Assembly (NCBI RefSeq): GCF_058153355.1
Contig: NZ_CM177019.1
Length of the DNA: 64,000 nt
Strand: one strand, 5' to 3'
The notes under the pieces are model-generated. The model saw nothing but the letters and a program-made list of their open reading frames with translations. It was not told the DNA's origin and made no database searches. Numbering within the stretch: the first letter of the stretch is position 1; the number at the start of each line of letters is the position of its first letter. Of the stretch, positions 9,209 to 61,442 are shown one piece after another. Both the position numbers and the translations under genes were made by a program.

Positions 9209-9679
9209 ATGCTAAGTAACGATATTCTGCGCAGCGTGCGCTACATTTTGAAAGCCAATAATAACGACTTGGTGCGCATTCTGGCGCTGGGTAATGTCGA
9301 AGCCACTGCGGAACAGATCGCCGTCTGGCTACGCAAAGAAGACGAAGAAGGGTTTCAGCGTTGTCCGGACATTGTTCTGTCTTCATTCCTGAATGGCCTG
9401 ATTTATGAAAAACGTGGCAAGGATGAGTCAGCTCCGGCACTGGAGCCGGAACGTCGCATTAATAACAACATCGTGCTGAAAAAATTACGTATCGCGTTTT
9501 CGCTGAAAACTGATGATATTCTGGCGATCCTTACCGAACAGCAGTTCCGCGTTTCGATGCCGGAAATTACGGCGATGATGCGTGCACCGGATCATAAAAA
9601 CTTTCGTGAATGCGGCGATCAATTCATGCGTTATTTTCTGCGTGGGCTGGCAGCGCGCCAGCATGTGAAGAAAAGCTAA
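9209..9679 (+). CDS. yehS: DUF1456 protein YehS
   Basis: 156 aa from MLSNDILRSV; ORF track starts further upstream. Confidence 0.8.
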   Translation: MLSNDILRSVRYILKANNNDLVRILALGNVEATAEQIAVWLRKEDEEGFQRCPDIVLSSFLNGLIYEKRGKDESAPALEPERRINNNIVLKKLRIAFSLKTDDILAILTEQQFRVSMPEITAMMRAPDHKNFRECGDQFMRYFLRGLAARQHVKKS

Positions 9680-9686
9680 GACGGGT

Positions 9687-9718
9687 ATGGCGGCCATGCG
9701 AAGAACATGGCCGCCGAC
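9687..9718. terminator. Bidirectional hairpin between convergent yehS and yehR
   Basis: Stem atggcggccatg / catggccgccga with loop cgaagaa. Confidence 0.5.
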
Positions 9719-9721
9719 AGA

Positions 9722-10183
9722 TTATTTCACTTCTTTAAAACCAGCGGCTTTCATCACCAGTTCCATTTGCGCCATAGTGATACCTTTTTTGGCATCTTCA
9801 GCAGAAACGTTGATACCTGAAATACCCTGCAGGGCTTTAAAATCAACTTTTTCCATATCGATAGTCACGTTTTCCTGAGCATAAGTATCGGTAAAGGTTA
9901 ATTTTTCTTCAACGCCAGGGATGTTTTTATATTTGGCACTTAACGGCTCAAGTGTCTTGGCAGCATCTTCTTTGGTGGTTGCACCAATGGAAGCAAATTG
10001 AATTTTGGTTTCAGAAGATTGCTTAAGAACCTTGTCACCTTTGTAGACATAGGTAATAGCAATTTCAGTACCGTTCAGATTAGCGCTAAATTTCTTCGAT
10101 TCTTCTTTGTCACCGCAGCCAGCAAGAGAGAAAACCAGAACAGATGCAACAACAAGGGAAAACAGCTTATTGAAAGCCTTCAT
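9722..10183 (-). CDS. yehR: Lipoprotein YehR (DUF1307)
   Basis: 153 aa from MKAFNKLFSLVVASVLVFSLAGC; lipobox LAGC. Confidence 0.85.
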   Translation of the reverse strand: MKAFNKLFSLVVASVLVFSLAGCGDKEESKKFSANLNGTEIAITYVYKGDKVLKQSSETKIQFASIGATTKEDAAKTLEPLSAKYKNIPGVEEKLTFTDTYAQENVTIDMEKVDFKALQGISGINVSAEDAKKGITMAQMELVMKAAGFKEVK

Positions 10184-10314
10184 GTAAAACTCCATTTTAT
10201 TTAATCAAGGAACTGGTGACCACACCAGGGGCCATATAGGATATGCCTAATACCTTGGCGTGAGCAGTCCGGAACTGGAGTAGAACTCTTTGTAAAAAGC
10301 ACTATTTGTCCTTG

Positions 10315-12306
10315 TTACTCAAGCAAGGTTAATAATTGTTCGCAAAGCAAAACGCAGTTATTCATTGCTTCTCCCCGTGCCTCGCCTTCTGTATTACGAA
10401 ATTGTCCCAACACATGTGCCAGCCGATAAAAACCCATCGCGGTGAGTTCATTGACCAGCAACTCTGACTGACTAATGGCACTCTGTTCCTGATAGCGCCA
10501 GCCATTATGGAGCAGTTGAATAAGCAACGCCTGACAGCGCATCAGTAACTGATGAGTGGTAGACGGTACAGGCAGAACGCTGGCAGAAGGTAGCGGTGCC
10601 ACAGGCGCAGTTTCTGCGTCCAGCGCCCAGGCGCGGGTTTTTGTCATCATCACCCGTGGTTCCAGTGTCAATTGCCCCTCTACAAAACTGACAAAGCCAG
10701 AAACCAGACTCACGGGGTCGTCTGTTTGTTGTAACAGAGCTGCCATGCGTTCAACGGCAAAAGGAGAACAGGCAGATGCCGGAAGGGATAACGTCAGCAC
10801 ATTATCGTCACCTTCGCCACTGATTACCTGCGCATCCAGTGTCTGCCGACTGCTGTCCCAACCGAGTGAAATGCACTCTTCTACTGGCAGAATAAATAAG
10901 TTATCGACCTGGTTAAGCTGTCGTATGGCGGCTGGCGGACGTTGGCGTAAATATTCCCGCAAAGCCACAATGCCCGGCTGGCGCAGTGGTGCGCTCAACA
11001 TTTGCCAGGCATCAGGCGACAGCGGAACAACACTGCTTAAGCGGTTGCGGGTAGCTAATAGCAACTCGCCATCAGCACTGCGTTTTGCTGCTTGTGAAAC
11101 AATTTGCCCACCCGCCAGCGCGCCAGCCTGAAAACTAAACAGCCGCCGTTTTGCCGCTGGAGAGTTATCCTGTTCACTTCTCGGCCAACTGCGCGAAAGA
11201 TGCAAAATACTGCCGGTGTCGGGATCGGTGAACCAGATGCGTAAACCATACCGCTCATTATCCTGCCAGCAACGCATACCTAGTGACACCAGCCGCAAAT
11301 GATCAAGCTTTGCTTCGCCAGCAATGCCTGCGCCAATGACCGTGCGCCACGGTATGGGCGGTACTTCACCGACACTGTCACGTCGCGCCATCTCTTGTGC
11401 ACTGTTCAAGCGACTGGTTAACGCCGCAAGCTGGCACAAGCATTTTCCGGCATGATAGTAGCTGGCGCGGGCGTGGAAGGCATCAACGCTTGCCCGTAGC
11501 TGTCGTAGTGATTCACTTACCCAACGCCAGTTGCAGCGTTCCGCCGCTTGCTGCGCGCGGCTGAAAGCGGCCTCGTAGTGGATTGACGGTTGGCTGATGC
11601 CTCCCAGCCATAATGCCTGACTTAATTGCTGAACATATTGACGACATGCTTTACCTTCGTCGCTGGAAAACGGATCGTCAGATGATGTGACGTGTTCACT
11701 GTGCATCTGCCAGATCAAATGAGTAAATTCTGCTTGTTGATTTTTGGCCTCGACGAAGGCCTGCACAGCCAGTGCTACGTGTTCACACAGCGTTCCTTCA
11801 ATACAATCACAACGGGCGAAACGAATGCTGCTGCGGGAATAAAAACGCACATCGCTCATCGGTAAGCGGGCAGAGGGAATTTCGCCCGGCGTGCAGAACA
11901 ACTCAATGGTGATGCCTTTAGCGACCAGCGCCTGCGCGCGTTTGCGCGTGGTATTGGGCAGGGTAGCCAGTTCTTCCTGCCAGATTGCCGGATCCCACTC
12001 TTCTTCTTTTTCCGTAGGCTGGGCGGTGGCACAAAGTCGTTGATAACTTAACACCAGCATCACGCGATGACGGCACATGCCGCTGGCCCCGCAGCTGCAT
12101 TGAGCCTCTTTCAGTGCCTGACTGTTCGCCAGCCGGGTACGGACACCGTCACTGAACGTGGCGATTAAAGCGCCGTTCTCATGGCAGATTTCCGGGACAT
12201 TGCCATTTTCCAGTTCCTTAAGGCTGCGCTTCACAAAACCAGCATTGCTTAACGCCGTCAGGGCCTGCGGTGTCAGTTCTAATAATTCCGGACGTAGTGA
12301 ATTCAT
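10315..12306 (-). CDS. yehQ: SWIM zinc-finger protein YehQ
   Basis: Start taken at MNSLRPELL (ATGA overlap with yehP stop); two CxC-x(n)-CxH signatures (CSCGASGMCRH and CDCIEGTLCEH). Confidence 0.75.
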   Translation of the reverse strand: MNSLRPELLELTPQALTALSNAGFVKRSLKELENGNVPEICHENGALIATFSDGVRTRLANSQALKEAQCSCGASGMCRHRVMLVLSYQRLCATAQPTEKEEEWDPAIWQEELATLPNTTRKRAQALVAKGITIELFCTPGEIPSARLPMSDVRFYSRSSIRFARCDCIEGTLCEHVALAVQAFVEAKNQQAEFTHLIWQMHSEHVTSSDDPFSSDEGKACRQYVQQLSQALWLGGISQPSIHYEAAFSRAQQAAERCNWRWVSESLRQLRASVDAFHARASYYHAGKCLCQLAALTSRLNSAQEMARRDSVGEVPPIPWRTVIGAGIAGEAKLDHLRLVSLGMRCWQDNERYGLRIWFTDPDTGSILHLSRSWPRSEQDNSPAAKRRLFSFQAGALAGGQIVSQAAKRSADGELLLATRNRLSSVVPLSPDAWQMLSAPLRQPGIVALREYLRQRPPAAIRQLNQVDNLFILPVEECISLGWDSSRQTLDAQVISGEGDDNVLTLSLPASACSPFAVERMAALLQQTDDPVSLVSGFVSFVEGQLTLEPRVMMTKTRAWALDAETAPVAPLPSASVLPVPSTTHQLLMRCQALLIQLLHNGWRYQEQSAISQSELLVNELTAMGFYRLAHVLGQFRNTEGEARGEAMNNCVLLCEQLLTLLE

Positions 12307-13439
12307 GACTGAAGATTCTCCGCAAGCCAGGTAGCCAGTTCGCCCGGCGTCATTGCGGCTATTTGTGCGCCGACATTTACCAGCGCCTGGGCTGTATCGC
12401 GGTCGTAGCAAGGTGTTGCGGTGCTATCGAGCGCTGCCAGTCCCAGCACTTTGATGCCGCTCTGGACACACTTTTTCACCTGATGCGTCAGCAATGATGA
12501 TGAACCCCCTTCATAAAAATCGCTCACGAGGATGATGACGCTTTTCGCTGGTTGTTCAATAAGTTGCCGACCATATTCCACGGCGCTGGCGATATTGGTC
12601 CCGCCATCCAGCTGTACTTTCATTAATAACTCTACCGGATCGGCAACGTCTGCCGTGAGATCGACGACGCTTGTGTCAAAAGCGACCAGATGGGTGCGGA
12701 TACCGGGTAACTGCCATAAACAGGCCGCCATCACCGCTGAGTGGATCACCGAATCGACCATTGAGCCGCTTTGATCAACCAGTAACACCAGCTGCCATTG
12801 TTCGCTATGGCGTTTAATTCGGCTGTTAAAGCGGGGGGATTCGATATACAACTTGCCGTGTTGCGGGTGCCAGTGTTGCAGGTTGGCGCGCAGAGTACTT
12901 TTGAAATCGAAATTACGTGCCAGTGGAATAAATGAGCGGCGACGGCGATCGCGGACACCTGAAAAAGCCTGACGAACTTCCTTTGCCAGTCGCGCCATAA
13001 TTTCTTCAACAACCTGGCGCACTATCCGGCGGGCGGCAGCCAGCACTTCGGGATTCATCAGATGTTTGGTGTGCAAAACGGCGCGTAGCAGGCTTTCAGA
13101 AGGCTGCATACGCTCCAGCACGTCGAGATTCGTCACCACATCTTCAATGCCGTAGCGCAGTACGGCATCGCTTTCCAGCCGCTCAATCACCCGTTGCGGA
13201 AATAGTGTGTGAATACTGTTGATCCACTCAGGGGTGGTGAGATTTGAGTCACCTAATCCACCGGAGCGTTCACCACGCTGGAGCCGTTCAGGATCGCGCC
13301 CATACAGCCACTCCAGCGCGTGGTCTATCTGCCGGGCATTGTCATCCAGCCCACAAAGCGTCGTTTCTGCCGCTTCGCCAAGAATTAATCGCCAGCGTTG
13401 TAGCTCACGAGTGGTCAGAAGATCGTTCAGTTCAGACAT
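12303..13439 (-). CDS. yehP: von Willebrand factor A (VWA) domain protein YehP
   Basis: 378 aa from MSELNDLL; MIDAS-like motif DQSGSM. Confidence 0.8.
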   Translation of the reverse strand: MSELNDLLTTRELQRWRLILGEAAETTLCGLDDNARQIDHALEWLYGRDPERLQRGERSGGLGDSNLTTPEWINSIHTLFPQRVIERLESDAVLRYGIEDVVTNLDVLERMQPSESLLRAVLHTKHLMNPEVLAAARRIVRQVVEEIMARLAKEVRQAFSGVRDRRRRSFIPLARNFDFKSTLRANLQHWHPQHGKLYIESPRFNSRIKRHSEQWQLVLLVDQSGSMVDSVIHSAVMAACLWQLPGIRTHLVAFDTSVVDLTADVADPVELLMKVQLDGGTNIASAVEYGRQLIEQPAKSVIILVSDFYEGGSSSLLTHQVKKCVQSGIKVLGLAALDSTATPCYDRDTAQALVNVGAQIAAMTPGELATWLAENLQS

Positions 13440-21424: not shown

Positions 21425-24400
21425 TTATTCAAACAGGGCTTCGATGTCGTTAATTAACTCGCTAGCGGTGATGTCATCGAGTGCGGAGAACTGCGCTTCC
21501 TGTGTTGAATTAATCCCCCAGCCATAGCTTTCTGCTTTGCCTTCCCATAGCCACAGCTTGCTTAAGAGTTGCTCGGCACTGAGTTCGGCTGGCGACATAC
21601 CAACTGCAAATCCTTCATCGATTTCCATGATTAATGACCAGCGGCCCAGAGGTTTGATCATCCAGCCGATCCAGCCACCGTCCTGCGGTTCACCACGCAT
21701 CCAGCCTTTATTCGCCAGCCCCATTACCCGACCGCTCGGGCATTTTCTGCCTGCCCAGCGGGTCAATTCGCTGGCATTGCGCTCGGTTTCTGTCAGGGCG
21801 TAACTGTTACGGTCGAGCTGGCGGAACGGCGGTAGCAGTTCGTAGTCGGCAAAAAGCTGACCAAAGGCGGCAGCATCCGTGGGTGATATTTCCAGAACGT
21901 GAGGAATGCCAACAGAGATATCGCCTTCCGGCAGGGTGAAAAGATCATCGTCAGCGGTGCTGTAGCTGTTATCTTCCGCCACACGGAAGCACGCCAGTAA
22001 CTGGTTGTCTGCGCTATAAATGCCCCAAATCAGACGGCGGGTTAAGTGGCAGACCAGCGGATGCTCAACCAGAAAGAGCTGAAAGTTTTCTGGCGACCAG
22101 CGGCGGCGCAGGCACATGGCGGATTCCAGCCTTGCCACCTGCTGGGCGGCAACGGTACGCGCATCTTTTTTCAGCAGTTTGTAGCGGTTAACTGCATCGT
22201 TCGCTTGAGTTTCATCATCGCTTTTGTTCGGTTTAGGCAAGTCTTTCAGGCGGCTGCCGGAAGCATCACGCACAAACGGTTTTAAGGTTTCATCAAAGCT
22301 GACGGTGAACTGCCGTGGCCCGAAATCCAGCAGCAGCGAACCGTTATCATCCAGACCGAGATCCGGTGCTAACCGGTCTTCAAGCTCCGCCACCGTGAGT
22401 TCGCGGCTCTCGGCAATGTCGGCAATTTTTTCTTTTGCCCGCTCCTGTAATGCTTTGAATTTCAGTTTCTGGGCGATGCCGTTAAGCTGCATCAGGGCGA
22501 TATCACTACCGATAGCAGCGAGAATATCCAGCCCGACGGTGGCGCGTTTATGCTGGGATTCACCAGGCCAGGCGCGAATCAAAGGCGTCAGTTTGCGGGC
22601 GGTATCATCGTTGCCGAGAACACCTAACGCAGTGAACGCCCAGCTTTCTTTCGACGGTGCGCCAGCGGTCTGCCAGGCGGTAAACAGATCCCAGGCAAAT
22701 TCAGCCAGTGAGTCGGCGGTACAGGCATCTTTCACCTGCAATAACCCCGCATACAGAGCCTCTTCCTGAGGGAAGCGGAGCATTTCACCGAGGTGGAGGA
22801 GGGCGTTATCTGGCAGTGATTGGGCGTTTGCTTTTAATACCGGGCGTGTCCAGAGCGATGGCTGATAAAAGGCCGGAAGTGTCGGGATTTTAGTCGGGTG
22901 ATTATCTAAGGGATCGAGCGCAAGTAGAGCGTTCACCGCATCGGTTACTTCCGGCTGGTTATAACGCTGGGCGATTTCTTGCAGTAATGACGGATAACCA
23001 CTTTCAATCAACATACGTAAGGCGGCGCGGGCGTTATCCTGGGCTTCACCAGCTTTGCCGAGTGCCGCAGGCAACAGGCCGATAATGGCATGTTCCGGAT
23101 ATTTCAGCAGCCAGGTGCGGGCGTCTTGTCGTAGAGTTTTGAGTTTGTTAAAGGCGCGGGCGACGGCAGGAGCCAGTTCCGTTGCGGCAAAATAATTAGC
23201 AACCGCAAAACCTTCTTGAGGGTAGCGTGAAAACGAGTGTAGAAAACCACTCATACCTGCCAGTCGCAAATAAAGCATGACAGGTTTTACCGCGGTATGC
23301 GGCTCTTTGCTGAGAAACTCCCATAGTTTAATCGCTGTTTGCATAGGTAAAAAGGGAAGTGAGTTGAGATGCCACTCCCCCTGATACGGTGCATGGTGGG
23401 CTTTAAACATTTGGATGAGTGTAGCGAAGTCCTCACGTTCCCATGCGTCAATTGCCGAGTCAGAAGCGCCGATATATTTATATGTGTCAAAATCCCAGCG
23501 GCGATACCCCAGCGAGTAAAGGAAATCTTTAGCACCTTCACCTGGCTTATGCGATTCCCAGTCCCAATGAGTTTGAAACTCTTTTGCTTCTGTGTCGGTT
23601 ATTGTGCATATGGATTTGAGTTTGAGCGGTGCTAAATCCAACACCGGAATCGTCGATTTTTTCTTTTTCGAAAGCCAGGGAGGTAAGACTAATACGGCTG
23701 GCAGTAGAGCGGCGCAGGCATGGTTTGACGGTTGTATCAGTTGTTGCTGGCATGATTTCAGCACTTCAACTGCGGCTGTCGAGAGCCAGGGAGTGACCTG
23801 TTCTGCCAGTGCCGGTTGCGAGATAAGCATCGTCATTAGCATAATGCGCCAAGTATTCTCTTCTTTTTGCGCAAGAAGTTCCGCCAGTGCCGCCAGTGCT
23901 GCGTGTGGGAACGCAGCGCAAGCTTTCGTCATCCGATCGTGACAGCGTTTAGTTTGCCCGGCTACACGTATGAGCAGTGTTAATGCGAACGGATGATTGA
24001 TATGACGCAATACATCTGCGCAGTAGTCACTTGCGGCATAGGGAGCAAATCTGGGCAGGGCTGCAACACCTTGCTCCTGTAATACGGTGGCTGACAATAT
24101 CGCACCACAATAGTAATCATCAAAAATGGCATATGGCTCGTGATATTTTTCTAATGAGGCAAGAATGTGCTCATCAGTCGCCACTATTTTTAGCCACTCA
24201 AGCGAGGGTAATTTTTTTTTCCCCAGTAGACGCTGGGCAATTTCATGTGCAATTTCTGGTTTTTCGGGTAATAACAAAGCAATTAATGGTTGCCGCCATT
24301 CTGGAATATGTGGAATTGCGGCAATAAGTTTTTGTGCACATTTTTGCCAGAGAGACTCTTCCGCCAGTGATAAATGTTTCCGTAGGCGTAATTCAAAACT

Positions 24401-39700: not shown

Positions 39701-39973
39701 ATGTCTCATACAATCCGTGATAAACAGAAACTGAAAGCGCGTGCCAGTAAGATTCAGGGCCAGGTCGTGGCGCTCAAGAAAATGCTCGACGAGCCGCACG
39801 AATGCGCAGCTGTTCTACAACAGATTGCTGCTATCCGTGGCGCGGTAAACGGCCTGATGCGCGAAGTGATTAAGGGGCATCTGACGGAACACATCGTTCA
39901 CCAGGGGGATGAGCTAAAACGTGAAGAAGATCTGGATGTCGTTCTGAAGGTGCTGGATTCTTATATCAAATGA
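39701..39973 (+). CDS. rcnR: Ni/Co-responsive repressor RcnR (YohL)
   Basis: 90 aa, [22 protein letters not shown]... Confidence 0.9.
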
Positions 39974-40082
39974 AAGTGCCTAATATGGCCGTAGTTGAGG
40001 CAATAAATAGAGGGACAAGTGACGTTAAGCTGAATTAGAGTAAATGGCGTGAGGACACACGCCATTCGAGGATATAGTTTGA

Positions 40083-40397
40083 TTAATTTTCGAAAAATTG
40101 CTTCACAGCCCAGCCACCATGACCACCTGGAGTTATGAATGAAACAAAACCTTTGTCATCGACGCTCTGGATTTCTACTGTCATTGATTCATCTAACACG
40201 CGACATTTATTGGATGTAATGAGACTCAGCATAGCCTGTTGGTCATTGTCCTGGATGTAACTGATCATCTCGTAAAAGTCAGTTAACTTTTTACAGTTAA
40301 ATGTACCTTCTTTAAGTGTTGCGCTGTCTCCGTGACTTAGTGCGAATGCATTTGGCATCATTGCCACAAAGATGACGGTAACGAGTAGTTTTTTCAT
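40083..40397 (-). CDS. Hypothetical small secreted protein (104 aa, two Cys in mature part)
   Basis: Signal peptide MKKLLVTVIFVAMMPNAFA; low-GC island; no family recognised. Confidence 0.55.
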   Translation of the reverse strand: MKKLLVTVIFVAMMPNAFALSHGDSATLKEGTFNCKKLTDFYEMISYIQDNDQQAMLSLITSNKCRVLDESMTVEIQSVDDKGFVSFITPGGHGGWAVKQFFEN

Positions 40398-57413: not shown

Positions 57414-58193
57414 ATGACGATGAATTCATTCGAGCGAAGGAATAAGATCATCCAATTAGTGAATGAACAGGGAACCGTGCTTGTTCAGGATCTGGCGGGA
57501 GTATTTGCTGCCTCGGAAGCGACAATCCGTGCCGATTTGCGCTTTCTCGAACAAAAAGGCGTGGTTACGCGCTTTCATGGCGGTGCGGCGAAAATAATGT
57601 CCGGTAATAATGAAACCGAGACCCAGGAAGTCGGGTTTAAAGAGCGATTTCAGCTCGCCAGCGCGCCGAAAAACAGAATAGCGCAGGCGGCAGTCAAAAT
57701 GATCCACGAAGGGATGACCGTTATTCTCGACAGCGGAAGTACGACAATGCTTATCGCCGAAGGTTTAATGACCGCCAAAAATATCACGGTGATTACCAAC
57801 AGTCTCCCGGCGGCGTTTGCCCTTTCCGAAAATAAAGACATTACTCTGGTCGTCTGTGGTGGCACGGTCCGCCATAAAACGCGCTCGATGCATGGCTCCA
57901 TTGCCGAGCGTTCATTGCAGGATATTAATGCCGATTTAATGTTTGTCGGTGCTGATGGTATTGATGCGGTTAATGGTATTACGACCTTTAATGAAGGTTA
58001 TTCGATTAGCGGTGCGATGGTCACAGCCGCTAATAAAGTGATTGCCGTTCTCGATTCATCGAAATTTAACCGTCGCGGTTTTAATCAGGTACTGCCAATC
58101 GAAAAAATTGACATTATTATTACTGATGATGCCGTGTCAGAGGTGGATAAACTGGCATTGCAGAAAACACGGGTGAAATTAATTACGGTGTAG
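57414..58193 (+). CDS. gatR: DeoR-family galactitol operon repressor (intact)
   Basis: 259 aa uninterrupted; N-terminal HTH. Confidence 0.85.
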   Translation: MTMNSFERRNKIIQLVNEQGTVLVQDLAGVFAASEATIRADLRFLEQKGVVTRFHGGAAKIMSGNNETETQEVGFKERFQLASAPKNRIAQAAVKMIHEGMTVILDSGSTTMLIAEGLMTAKNITVITNSLPAAFALSENKDITLVVCGGTVRHKTRSMHGSIAERSLQDINADLMFVGADGIDAVNGITTFNEGYSISGAMVTAANKVIAVLDSSKFNRRGFNQVLPIEKIDIIITDDAVSEVDKLALQKTRVKLITV

Positions 58194-58274: not shown

Positions 58275-59174
58275 TTAACGCAATAATGGACAATCCGGTG
58301 GTAATCGACAGCGCAATGCTGCCGGAAGTATTTCAATATGGAAGTTTTGTCCACTCAACGGTTCGCCATCAAGATTAAAGGTAATTTCGTGTGGCGCTTG
58401 TATATCGAACCACGCCGAAGCACCTTCGATAATATTCGGGTTATCTTCGTCAGATTTTAAGGTTGATACGAGAGCCGGAAGAATTTCATCGCCGGTGAAA
58501 ATGCGTAGTTGCAGCAAGCCGTCGTTAATTAATGCGTTCGGGCACAATTGCTGACCGCCACCTGCCTGACGGCCGTTACCAATACCAATGACTAGTGCGT
58601 CACCTTGCCAGTGAAAGTTTTCACCGCGGATTTCACAACGGTCCGGTTGCAGTGTATCCATGCGCATTAAGCCGTGAATGATGTAAGAGACGCCACCCAG
58701 CGCGGCTTTTAATTTTTCCGGCGTTTCTGTGGTAATACGTGTCCCAAACCCACCCGTTGCCATATTAATAAAACAGGTTTTTTTGTTGACCTGCGCCATA
58801 TCAATCGCAATAGCATCACCAGCAATTGCTAGTTTCAGCGCCTTATCCAGTGCCTCAGGTATACCCACGCTGGTCGCGAAATCGTTCGCTGTACCTAGTG
58901 GCAAAATCCCCAGCGCGGGTATGTCATCGCCCTCACACTGAATCAGCGCCGAGGAAACTTCATTAATAGTGCCATCGCCGCCACCGGCAATTACCGTTGC
59001 GACGCCCAGCTTCCGGGCCTCTTCTACAAATCGGGCGGCATCGCCTTTCTCCCAGGTGACCCGCACATGGATCGTCATTCCTTCCTCGCGCAACAGCATA
59101 ATTGCTTCGCGCAAGGGTTGATTGTCAGTACTTTTGCCGTTAAGAATCAGTAAGCTGGCGGGAAATTCTGCCAT
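58275..59174 (-). CDS. yegS: Lipid kinase YegS (diacylglycerol kinase catalytic domain family)
   Basis: 299 aa; GGDGT motif. Confidence 0.85.
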
Positions 59175-59257
59175 AATCGTATGCCTTTATGATTGGTCTG
59201 TAGATAGTGTAGAGCAGAAAAGAAAAGGCGGAGTCAGAACAGGATGAAAATCGGAGG

Positions 59258-59390
59258 ATAAAAAATCAGTTCAAGGATGGGGAATTCAGTGGTTACCAGT
59301 AAGGGGGGCAACGGTACACTCGGTTTTTATCGGCATAAATGATCACTGAAAGCACTTAAGCATTATTTTACTGTGGATTCAGCGTGGCAG
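59258..59390. repeat. Degenerate copy of the P2-type attachment core plus int-proximal arm
   Basis: By-eye alignment to 60321..60455, estimated 70-75% identity: ataaaaaat, accagta.ggggg, caacggtaca, cggcataaat, cactgaaagc, tactgtgga. Confidence 0.5.
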
Positions 59391-59530
59391 CGAACATTAA
59401 CGGTAGTCAGGGACAAACTTCAAAAGAGCATATGCATCATATTCAACAAAGCAATGGCATCCTCAATGTACGATTCCAATTATATTAAATAATTCCTATG
59501 AGGTTATCTGTGATAGGCCTCCATGTCTGT

Positions 59531-59552
59531 ATTTCCTACTTATGTAGGAAAT
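59531..59552. promoter_or_regulatory. Perfect 22-bp palindrome (candidate operator) upstream of yegR
   Basis: atttcctac-ttat-gtaggaaat, ~19 bp upstream of a TATAAT hexamer at ~59571..59576. Confidence 0.4.
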
Positions 59553-59656
59553 TCTGCACAAAACATTTATTATAATCCTATTCAATAATGACAATGATGT
59601 CATTATTATATTTCAACACTAGAGAGTGTCGTTGGTGTTTAATGGGGGAAGGTGAG

Positions 59657-59974
59657 ATGAAAAAGACAGTTGCTATATCATTAATTAGTGTTTTTCTTAT
59701 GTCTGGTTGTGCTGTGCATAATGATGAGACAAGTATCGGTAAATTCGGTCTTGCCTATAAAAGTAATATCCAGCGTAAACTCGATAACCAATACTACACT
59801 GAAGCCGAAGCATCTTTAGCCAGGGGCAGAATATCTGGTGCGGAAAATATAGTGAAAAATGATGCAGCTAATTTCTGTGTTACTCAGGGCAAAAAAATGC
59901 AGATAGTTAACCTGAAGACTGAAGGGGCAGGATTACATGGCGTCGCGCGTCTGACATTCAAATGTGGAGAGTGA
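59657..59974 (+). CDS. yegR: Small lipoprotein YegR
   Basis: 105 aa from MKKTVAISLISVFLMSGC; lipobox LMSGC. Confidence 0.8.
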   Translation: MKKTVAISLISVFLMSGCAVHNDETSIGKFGLAYKSNIQRKLDNQYYTEAEASLARGRISGAENIVKNDAANFCVTQGKKMQIVNLKTEGAGLHGVARLTFKCGE

Positions 59975-60322
59975 GAATAGATTCAAGACTACCATGGACA
60001 CATCCATTTTTATCTCTGATAAGGTATTCTTCAACACCATTATTGAATGTGAGTAATAATGACAAGCAGATAGATGAAACTACAGCAGAATTTTTATTTT
60101 ATGCGGCTATCAGAAAATGATGGCATAAATATTCCTATGCTTTAGCTTCATTTTTTGTAAGCGTCAAACATGCGCGTTCTGGCTGTGCGTAGCCGGACCC
60201 TGTGCGAGCACGATGCCGTTAAGTGAAAGGCATCGTGCTATGAAGGGGAATTCTATCGATATGGTCAATGGAAGGAGGTAACCAGGTATGAATCCTTCCT
60301 TCTGTTTCATTGAATTACGCAT

Positions 60323-60349
60323 AAAAAATAAGCCCGTGTAAGGGAGATT
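60323..60349. other. P2-type attachment core at the host/prophage junction (attL)
   Basis: aaaaaataagcccgtgtaagggagatt, the 27-bp P2 core as I recall it, ~80 bp from the int stop. Confidence 0.7.
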
Positions 60350-60428
60350 TAGGGTGTCACCAGTAGGGGCTTTCAACGGTACAATGCGGGTTTGAGCGGC
60401 ATAAATTACCACTGAAAGCCCTTAAACG

Positions 60429-61442
60429 TTACTCTACTGTGGACACTGTGTGGACACTCTCGGCCTCAGTACCACCTCTTAGCGGATTAAGAGAAATGGC
60501 GTCCTGAAGGTACTCTGGCGCAAAGTGAGCGTAAACCATAGTTTGCTCAATCCGCGTGTGACCTAGTATCCGTTGTAGCGTGATAATACTTCCTCCATTA
60601 ATCATGAAATGAGTGGCAAAGCTGTGCCTTAGTGCATGTGTGGCTTGCCCCATTGGCAAATCCGGTTTTATTGCTTTCATTGTTCGTCTGAAGCGAGGGT
60701 AATCAGCATCAGGGAATAAAAAACCTCGTTTGTTATCCGCGATCATTTTGGCAACAGCCTCTGAGATCGGGACGGTGCGTGGTTTGTTTGTTTTCGTTTT
60801 AACAAACGTGACGCGGTTATGGATGATATTTTCTGCTTTCAAACGAGCTGCTTCTCCCCAACGTGCTCCAGTACTCAGGCAAAGAATCGCAATCTTTTTA
60901 TTGTCGCCGTCAAGAGCAGCAAGCAGTAAGGCAATTTCTTCCTGCGTGAGATAGCCTGTGTCTGGTTTTTCCTCCTTAAGCCTTTTTGTCCCTCTGATAG
61001 GGTGCTCACCAAAGAATAACTCCGCTTCAATCAGGGCTGTAAACATGCCGCTAATACATGTTAAATCACGATTGATACTCGAAGGTTTAATACCCTGACT
61101 TCTTCGGGTGGCGCAGTACTGGCTGATAAGCGATTTCGTAATTTGAAATGCGCATGGGTCATTCGTTATTTTTGTGAAGATTTCAATTTTTCCAAGATTA
61201 GATTTCCCATGCTCTTCGTGTTTACCCTTTAAATCCCACCAGATCTGTGTCAGCTCCGACAGACGTCGCTTGTCTGTTGGTTTTGATAGCCATTCTTTAT
61301 TGTGGTGGTTGTACAACGTGTATTTCTCGAAAGCGACAGCTTCGCTTTTCTTATCAAACTTCCTACGGATGCGTTTTCCATTACGTCCAGTAGGGCGGAT
61401 GTCCACTTCATATCGACCATCATCGAGTTTTTTGATTGCCAT
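60429..61442 (-). CDS. int: P2-type tyrosine integrase
   Basis: 337 aa; catalytic RxxR...HxxRH...Y signature in the C-terminus. Confidence 0.9.
   Translation of the reverse strand: MAIKKLDDGRYEVDIRPTGRNGKRIRRKFDKKSEAVAFEKYTLYNHHNKEWLSKPTDKRRLSELTQIWWDLKGKHEEHGKSNLGKIEIFTKITNDPCAFQITKSLISQYCATRRSQGIKPSSINRDLTCISGMFTALIEAELFFGEHPIRGTKRLKEEKPDTGYLTQEEIALLLAALDGDNKKIAILCLSTGARWGEAARLKAENIIHNRVTFVKTKTNKPRTVPISEAVAKMIADNKRGFLFPDADYPRFRRTMKAIKPDLPMGQATHALRHSFATHFMINGGSIITLQRILGHTRIEQTMVYAHFAPEYLQDAISLNPLRGGTEAESVHTVSTVE

Follow-up and report, generated by a model that had tools for sequence, protein, structure and literature searches.

The 64-kb stretch of Escherichia coli DNA analyzed here (the window, 64,000 nucleotides) carries yegR between yegS and the integrase gene of a resident P2 prophage that extends past the window end. 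The features of this region are listed in Table 1. The sites bound by Int, Cox and IHF were placed by alignment with P2 attP, using the protein-binding features annotated in AF063097 as a map.

Table 1. Features of the region from gatR to the integrase gene of the resident prophage, in window coordinates.
Feature	Position	Strand	Remarks
gatR	57414-58193	+
yegS	58275-59174	-
B flank, spacer between the original cyaR terminator and the yegS start codon	59175-59259		base-for-base alignment with relatives
Degenerate 27-bp P2 core (O of the relic attL)	59260-59286		18/27 identical to the P2 core
Cox-binding-region homologue, relic P' arm	59302-59373		57/72 identical to P2 24399-24472 (Cox binding site of AF063097)
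Stretch of the relic P' arm (~70 bp) deleted in most E. coli	59314-59383		limits alignment-dependent, about ±10 bp
Partial homologue of an Int arm-type site, relic P' arm	59371-59400		17/24 identical to P2 24470-24496
AT-rich spacer upstream of yegR	59401-59656		GC 32-39%, versus 48-58% in yegS
yegR	59657-59974	+	ORF
Interior spacer downstream of yegR, with hairpin	59975-60255
Putative P-arm Int site homologue (relic attR)	60256-60283		22/28 identical to P2 24293-24320
Putative IHF site homologue, between P arm and core	60287-60322		23/34 identical to P2 24324-24357
Intact 27-bp core, AAAAAATAAGCCCGTGTAAGGGAGATT	60323-60349		reverse complement of the cyaR 3' end (P2 locI)
P' arm of the resident prophage	60350-60463		Cox region 60366-60439, Int arm site 60437-60463 (AF063097 annotation)
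int of the resident P2 prophage	60429-61442	-	337-aa ORF; near-identical genomes annotate it as a site-specific integrase

The resident prophage has the left end of phage P2. As the first-pass annotation of this DNA had proposed, the core is intact: it is identical to the annotated phage P2 attP core at all 27 positions, and window 60323-60520, which covers the core, the P' arm and the 3' end of int, is 100% identical to P2 24356-24553. In empty sites the cyaR terminator consists of the same 27-mer, and so does the terminator at the opposite end of the full prophage of APEC E19025. Our search of the literature on yegR, cyaR, P2 and locI yielded one relevant statement, in the paper on the E. 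coli W genome (PMC3032704), which counts cyaR among the P2-like insertion sites.

The locus with the full prophage of APEC E19025, which serves below as the source of the P-arm comparison sequence, has several features of its own. A SIR2 and ATP-binding anti-phage gene pair lies between the replication and portal genes, where P2 carries old/tin. The virion-morphogenesis gene contains ISEc12. Between trhP and yegP there is a parDE toxin-antitoxin pair (features at 9526-12592, 22098-24400 and 39798-40392 of this locus, L003).

A second, diverged copy of the attachment region is found between yegS and yegR. Local alignment of 59240-59420 against 60300-60480 matches 59258-59377 to 60321-60443, the resident attL region, with 94 of 119 ungapped columns identical (79%) and a score of 91. 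The null for this alignment (500 shuffles) is 15.8±2.1 with a maximum of 26, and comparison of the resident target with every other segment of the window, on both strands, gave a best score of 25. An ungapped repeat search independently paired 59321-59387 with 60387-60453, also at 79%. The first-pass annotation had seen this resemblance by eye and estimated it at 70-75%, which proves slightly low. The four arm motifs that it had singled out near 59258-59390 each occur exactly twice in the window (59309/60374, 59331/60397, 59344/60410 and 59369/60435), with a constant offset of 1065-1066 between copies. Pairwise comparison with the region of 60315-60460 and with P2 attP, the check that had been suggested for this claim, gave a similarity far above background and a site-by-site match.

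The degenerate core that had been suspected at the yegS side of this copy is best placed at 59260-59286, with 18/27 identities (P=2e-5 at fixed position). At least 18 matches to the P2 core are reached by three of the 127,948 27-mers in the window; taken alone, the left core is weak evidence. It is also present in K-12 and Ec55. The putative Cox region and Int P' site that follow it are collinear with those of P2. The first TGTGGA repeat of the Int site is retained, while the second has decayed. The left arm has no match at E≤0.01 in the phage collection, probably because it is short relative to a 2.3-Gb database.

It could be argued that the similarity arose by chance, or that the resident attL was recently duplicated or acted as donor in a gene conversion, as the match is short. 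Such an origin has a negligible probability in our view: the score is 36 standard deviations above that of the shuffles, which rules out chance, and a recent copying event is ruled out by the 21% divergence of the copy and by its presence in strains without a prophage at this site.

The other end of the segment is also of P2 type. Positions 60256-60320 adjoin the intact core on its left. Aligned over 61 columns, this stretch shares 82% identity with the ogr-proximal P arm from the far end of the full APEC E19025 prophage. The alignment score is 53, compared to 15.5±2.2 (maximum 27) for the null. The stretch includes homologues of the P-arm Int site and of the IHF site, both assigned by alignment. 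The aligned IHF span (60287-60324) overlaps the core by 2 bases, and this site is partly deleted in Ec55 and K-12. When the interior and the relic P arm were searched against the phage collection, only records with host flanks (see below) and one 77% P-arm match were obtained.

The two ends have decayed unevenly. The P-arm Int site retains 24-25 of 27 P2 positions in the common haplotypes (25/27 in Ec55, 24/27 in K-12), versus 79% identity in the left arm and 18/27 in the left core. This unevenness could reflect two separate events, or later homologous exchange with newer prophages. A perfect hairpin with an 11-bp stem (60207-60239, AGCACGATGCC…GGCATCGTGCT) closely precedes the fossil P arm and occupies the place of the ogr terminator in P2. 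It has no T-run, is kept in K-12 and Ec55, and matches the P2 terminator at only 13 of 24 positions.

The order of these features on the plus strand is degenerate core, relic P' arm, AT-rich DNA with yegR, relic P arm and intact core, spanning 59260-60349 (~1.09 kb). The relic ends on the right with the intact core, and the resident prophage starts on its left with that same core. The P arm at the right end gives the yegR segment the full topology of a prophage. A core at each end, a P' arm, a P arm and an empty site in relatives are all found, as in a P2-type attachment junction.

The interior has a GC content of 32-40%, compared to about 50% in the flanks, and yegR is the sole ORF between the two arms. 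A tblastn search of 59175-60322 with 37 proteins of a related full prophage returned noise only and revealed no trace of P2 proteins, int and ogr included, and blastn of the same interval matched the arms alone. No Rfam match was obtained in 58900-60700 at a permissive threshold, and a scan for promoters and terminators stayed at background level. As no recognisable phage genes or pseudogenes, such as define a cryptic or defective prophage, are found in it, the segment is a relic consisting of att arms and one gene, rather than a cryptic prophage.

The yegS neighbourhood was compared across one genome per species, and yegQ, cyaR, yegR and the arms were mapped in each. About 40 Enterobacteriaceae species, including Klebsiella, Enterobacter, Atlantibacter, Kluyvera and Citrobacter koseri, have the arrangement yegQ-cyaR-(~85 bp)-yegS, without yegR. 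Among these 40 are three lineages of non-coli Escherichia (E. whittamii, 'E. coli' E69 and Escherichia sp. E1V33), all of them separate species representatives. The degenerate core of E. coli aligns with the position of the cyaR terminator in the relic-free species, and the adjoining spacer of about 83-85 bp is 88-96% identical to the spacers of E. whittamii, E69, E1V33 and E. albertii. These correspondences show that the E. coli lineage acquired the ~1.1-kb segment by insertion at the 3' end of cyaR. The converse possibility, host sequence captured by a phage, was considered as well and is ruled out, as the order of the arms is inside-out for that model and the outgroups do not carry the segment.

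Among 5426 complete E. coli genomes, all but three (5423) match the relic region, and a relic-free cyaR-yegS junction was found in none of the 5426; the relic appears to be fixed in the species. It co-occurs with an empty site (Ec55, M160133, CU42ET-1), with the ogrK-gpD' remnant of K-12 and with full prophages. The first-pass annotation had held that presence of the sequence in strains with no history of P2 integration would speak against an integration footprint. That criterion does not apply here: the relic does occur in strains with and without a prophage, empty-site strains included, because the integration predates the species; the informative contrast is with the outgroup species, which are without the relic.

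The best arm similarity lies in the ~70-bp stretch of the relic P' arm, which is present in only 22 of the 5426 complete genomes, among them the empty-site strains M160133 and CU42ET-1. It is absent from K-12 DH10B, Ec55, strain 50579417 and SCPM-O-B-8794; K-12 and most strains retain only the degenerate core and about 55 bp of the left arm. Since these 70 bp extend the collinear alignment with the P2 arm, they must be ancestral, and the common allele has lost them by deletion. The yegS-yegR region of the window (58275-59656) is a deeply diverged haplotype. Compared with loci L001, L002, L014 and L071, its identity is 92% in yegS and 80% upstream of yegR, versus 98% in gatR. Mosaics of the haplotypes exist, and CU42ET-1 is a clear mosaic of two.

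A one-base polymorphism is observed in the cyaR terminator/core. Ec55 (L002 4060-4086) has AAGCCTGTG, which gives a perfect stem, while the P2 base, AAGCCCGTG, which gives a G·U wobble, is found in K-12 (L001 4511-4537), APEC E19025 (L003 38163-38189) and M160133 (L070 4534-4560). Of these, M160133 has an empty site. Past rounds of P2 integration and excision may have left this difference behind.

Taken together, the sequence comparisons make it very probable that 59260-60349 is a fossil P2-family integrative element in the 3' end of cyaR, whose core was re-used by a modern P2. The core re-use, the homologies of the arms with their order and orientation, and the absence of the segment from the outgroups are directly observed. 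That both arms come from one element, and that this element was a complete phage, we infer from the two arms only, since no phage protein remnant persists inside the relic. The proposal that an earlier P2-family element had integrated here and decayed, and that the current prophage used the retained core, had been made in the first-pass annotation; the second arm, the relic-free outgroups and the parallel relics described below all bear it out.

The probable sequence of events is as follows. Recombination by a tyrosine integrase would have placed a P2-family element into the cyaR 3' end (locI) of an E. coli ancestor, duplicating the 27-bp core. The core copy that terminates cyaR would have been held by selection and so would still be a perfect P2 target, while the copy stranded beside yegS would have been free to decay, to 18/27. 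Deletion would have removed int and every recognisable phage gene, leaving the two arms, the AT-rich interior and yegR. A later P2 then entered the preserved core, creating the present P-O-P' junction (60256-60463), in which the P arm is the fossil one. K-12 shows the next step: alongside the old relic, only ogr-D' is left of the newer prophage.

Decay of a P2-type prophage to arms plus cargo can be seen elsewhere at this hotspot. E. albertii NBRC 107761 has a 3.4-kb relic at the same cyaR-yegS site (L018 2545-5913). Its ends keep 41/47 positions of a P arm, 58/64 of a P' arm and, in a core copy, 23/27; cdtABC are the only genes inside. The Cdt-V cassette of complete P2-like phages (KC618326, fiAA91-ss) shares ~90% identity with these genes. 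C. amalonaticus S646 has a 2.1-kb insert (L019 3894-5900) with both P2-like arms and fragments of int. The two relics are independent of that of E. coli, and show that such decay does take place here. Two Enterobacter inserts between cyaR and yegS (L056 2348-4335 and L066 4014-6000) have a 22/27 core copy beside yegS, without P2-like arms.

These parallels bear on whether the E. coli relic was ever a full phage. It might instead descend from a small non-autonomous element, consisting of attP and yegR, that relied on P2 Int and Cox in trans for integration and possible excision, as a phage equivalent of a cis-mobilizable element. The relic does consist of two arms, two cores and one cargo gene, with no phage protein remnant found, and joining its cores would rebuild a P-O-P' attP with about 0.9 kb of DNA. 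However, the E. albertii and C. amalonaticus relics have the same shape and contain cdtABC or int fragments, so deletion of a full prophage is sufficient to produce it. Moreover, phage records and other att sites yielded no free or second copy of the yegR element. We therefore regard an element of this kind as an unlikely ancestor, and retain a P2-family prophage as the probable source of the arms.

The origin of yegR itself is less certain. YegR is a predicted lipoprotein of 105 residues with a lipobox (LMSGC) and two further conserved cysteines. The gene is found in nearly all E. coli, and sister species are without it. A profile search of 1.8 billion representatives recovered 64 relatives of YegR, and Pfam PF27694 (YegR family) was found on all homologues. 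In the five clusters of relatives whose context was examined, the genes are scattered among mostly non-phage loci, as single-gene islands, with one beside a prophage. An AlphaFold2 model of YegR has a pLDDT of 80 and is confident for the mature domain, and gives no fold match in the PDB or BFVD at E≤0.001. Searches against PHROGs and NCBIfam returned only the protein's own family and signal-peptide matches; the match to the Cor PHROG (E=0.087) covers the signal peptide only. YegR thus has neither the sequence nor the fold similarity expected of a Cor-like exclusion lipoprotein, and the suggestion in the first-pass annotation that it could act in superinfection exclusion finds no support in the family or fold searches. 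E. coli FDAARGOS_1077 (L080) has a 465-bp internal deletion that takes most of yegR and leaves both relic ends in place, so the gene is dispensable in at least one strain.

A yegR homologue was found in none of 50,697 phage records, apart from two that include host flanking DNA: ON470606 (phage vB_EcoM-720R8) and AY639599 ('Phage TP'). One of these contains yegR, yegS and gatR, and the other yegR-D'-ogr-yegQ. Host DNA in the two records makes yegR look phage-borne, and PHROG 21109 was probably seeded by them. Prophage-boundary tools and some database records wrongly draw yegR and yegS into 'phage' genomes.

Two readings of yegR remain close to each other. The gene resembles a moron in being compositionally distinct, self-contained and located inside prophage boundaries; homologues in phage genomes, the other mark of a moron, are not found. 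The earlier suggestion that yegR was cargo of the decayed element is therefore plausible on account of its AT-richness and its position inside the relic, and loses from the lack of a true phage homologue; we consider it an even bet. Alternatively, the arms are a prophage relic and yegR arrived later, by insertion or recombination at the hotspot. The phage-record search points this way, as does the occurrence of relatives as single-gene islands in unrelated loci, with only one beside a prophage, and the haplotypes of the locus are deep and mosaic. Against this, yegR and its AT-rich flanks occupy the entire space between the arms with no other junction visible, the whole block is missing from the outgroups as a unit, and relics elsewhere retain exactly the cargo gene. 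A later arrival is accordingly a serious possibility, to which we give somewhat less weight than to phage cargo. On the cargo reading or not, yegR lies in DNA brought by a P2-type element at the cyaR terminator.

The topology of the relic has a consequence for P2 biology. The textbook 'empty' P2 attB of E. coli is structurally an old attR (P-O-B', with a fossil P arm), that is, the right end of an older integration. Since a P-arm Int site lies 40-60 bp from the core in every E. coli, locI may not be a simple attB. It is conceivable, though we think it improbable, that locI acts as an arm-assisted, attR-like target, and that the relic and a resident P2 could occasionally excise together, mobilising yegR. 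If so, the fossil arm would raise the efficiency of P2 integration or alter the Cox/IHF dependence of excision. The degenerate state of the outer core makes joint or trans excision of the relic doubtful. The fossil P arm is relevant wherever locI serves as a model attB; overall, the practical consequences of the relic are small. A general rule is illustrated by the locus: where an att copy is also the end of a functional gene, it remains perfect and keeps drawing in phages, while the other copy decays.

The nearest known system is the cryptic P2 remnant of K-12 (ogrK and yegZ/gpD') at cyaR/locI, reportedly described by Barreiro and Haggård-Ljungquist in 1992. The first-pass annotation had named such a remnant next to yegR, rightly so: the order in DH10B is yegR, gpD', ogrK, yegQ. 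In DH10B (L001 3881-3900), the core on the yegR side stops after GCCCGTGTA, where the C-terminal part of gene D follows directly, which places the deletion endpoint inside the core. The site appears as 'ogr-D'' in PMC3032704. The two relics share the att site, the phage family and a history of integration followed by internal deletion. However, the K-12 remnant is of recent date, with a sequence nearly identical to that of P2; it retains ogr and part of D, and its core on the yegR side is truncated and joined to D'. In the older yegR relic, the arms are about 20% diverged, the core is 18/27 and no phage gene is left; this relic adjoins the K-12 remnant without being part of it, and appears fixed in the species. 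A published description of the yegR relic was not found in the searchable literature, which does not reach the older P2 papers.

Among the P2-like phages with Cdt-V are fiAA91-ss and the T22 prophage (KC618326). The cdtABC island of E. albertii resembles the yegR relic in having a P arm, a P' arm, a decayed core and cargo genes alone between them. It differs in that its cargo has a known function and a phage source, complete phages at 90% identity, whereas yegR has no phage source. The arms and core of the E. albertii island (58/64 and 23/27) are also less decayed than those of the yegR relic.

Cis-mobilizable elements (CIMEs) and tandem accretion are known from ICESt1/ICESt3 in Streptococcus thermophilus and from tandem islands at tRNA genes. 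The yegR relic is CIME-like, as it is flanked by att sequences, has no recombinase of its own and stands in tandem with a complete resident P2 that uses the retained att site. Unlike the CIMEs of ICESt1/ICESt3, its outer core is degenerate, it belongs to the P2-type phage family and its target is the terminator of an sRNA. As a kind of feature it is familiar, a prophage relic combined with serial use of an att hotspot, and it represents a clear but ordinary case.
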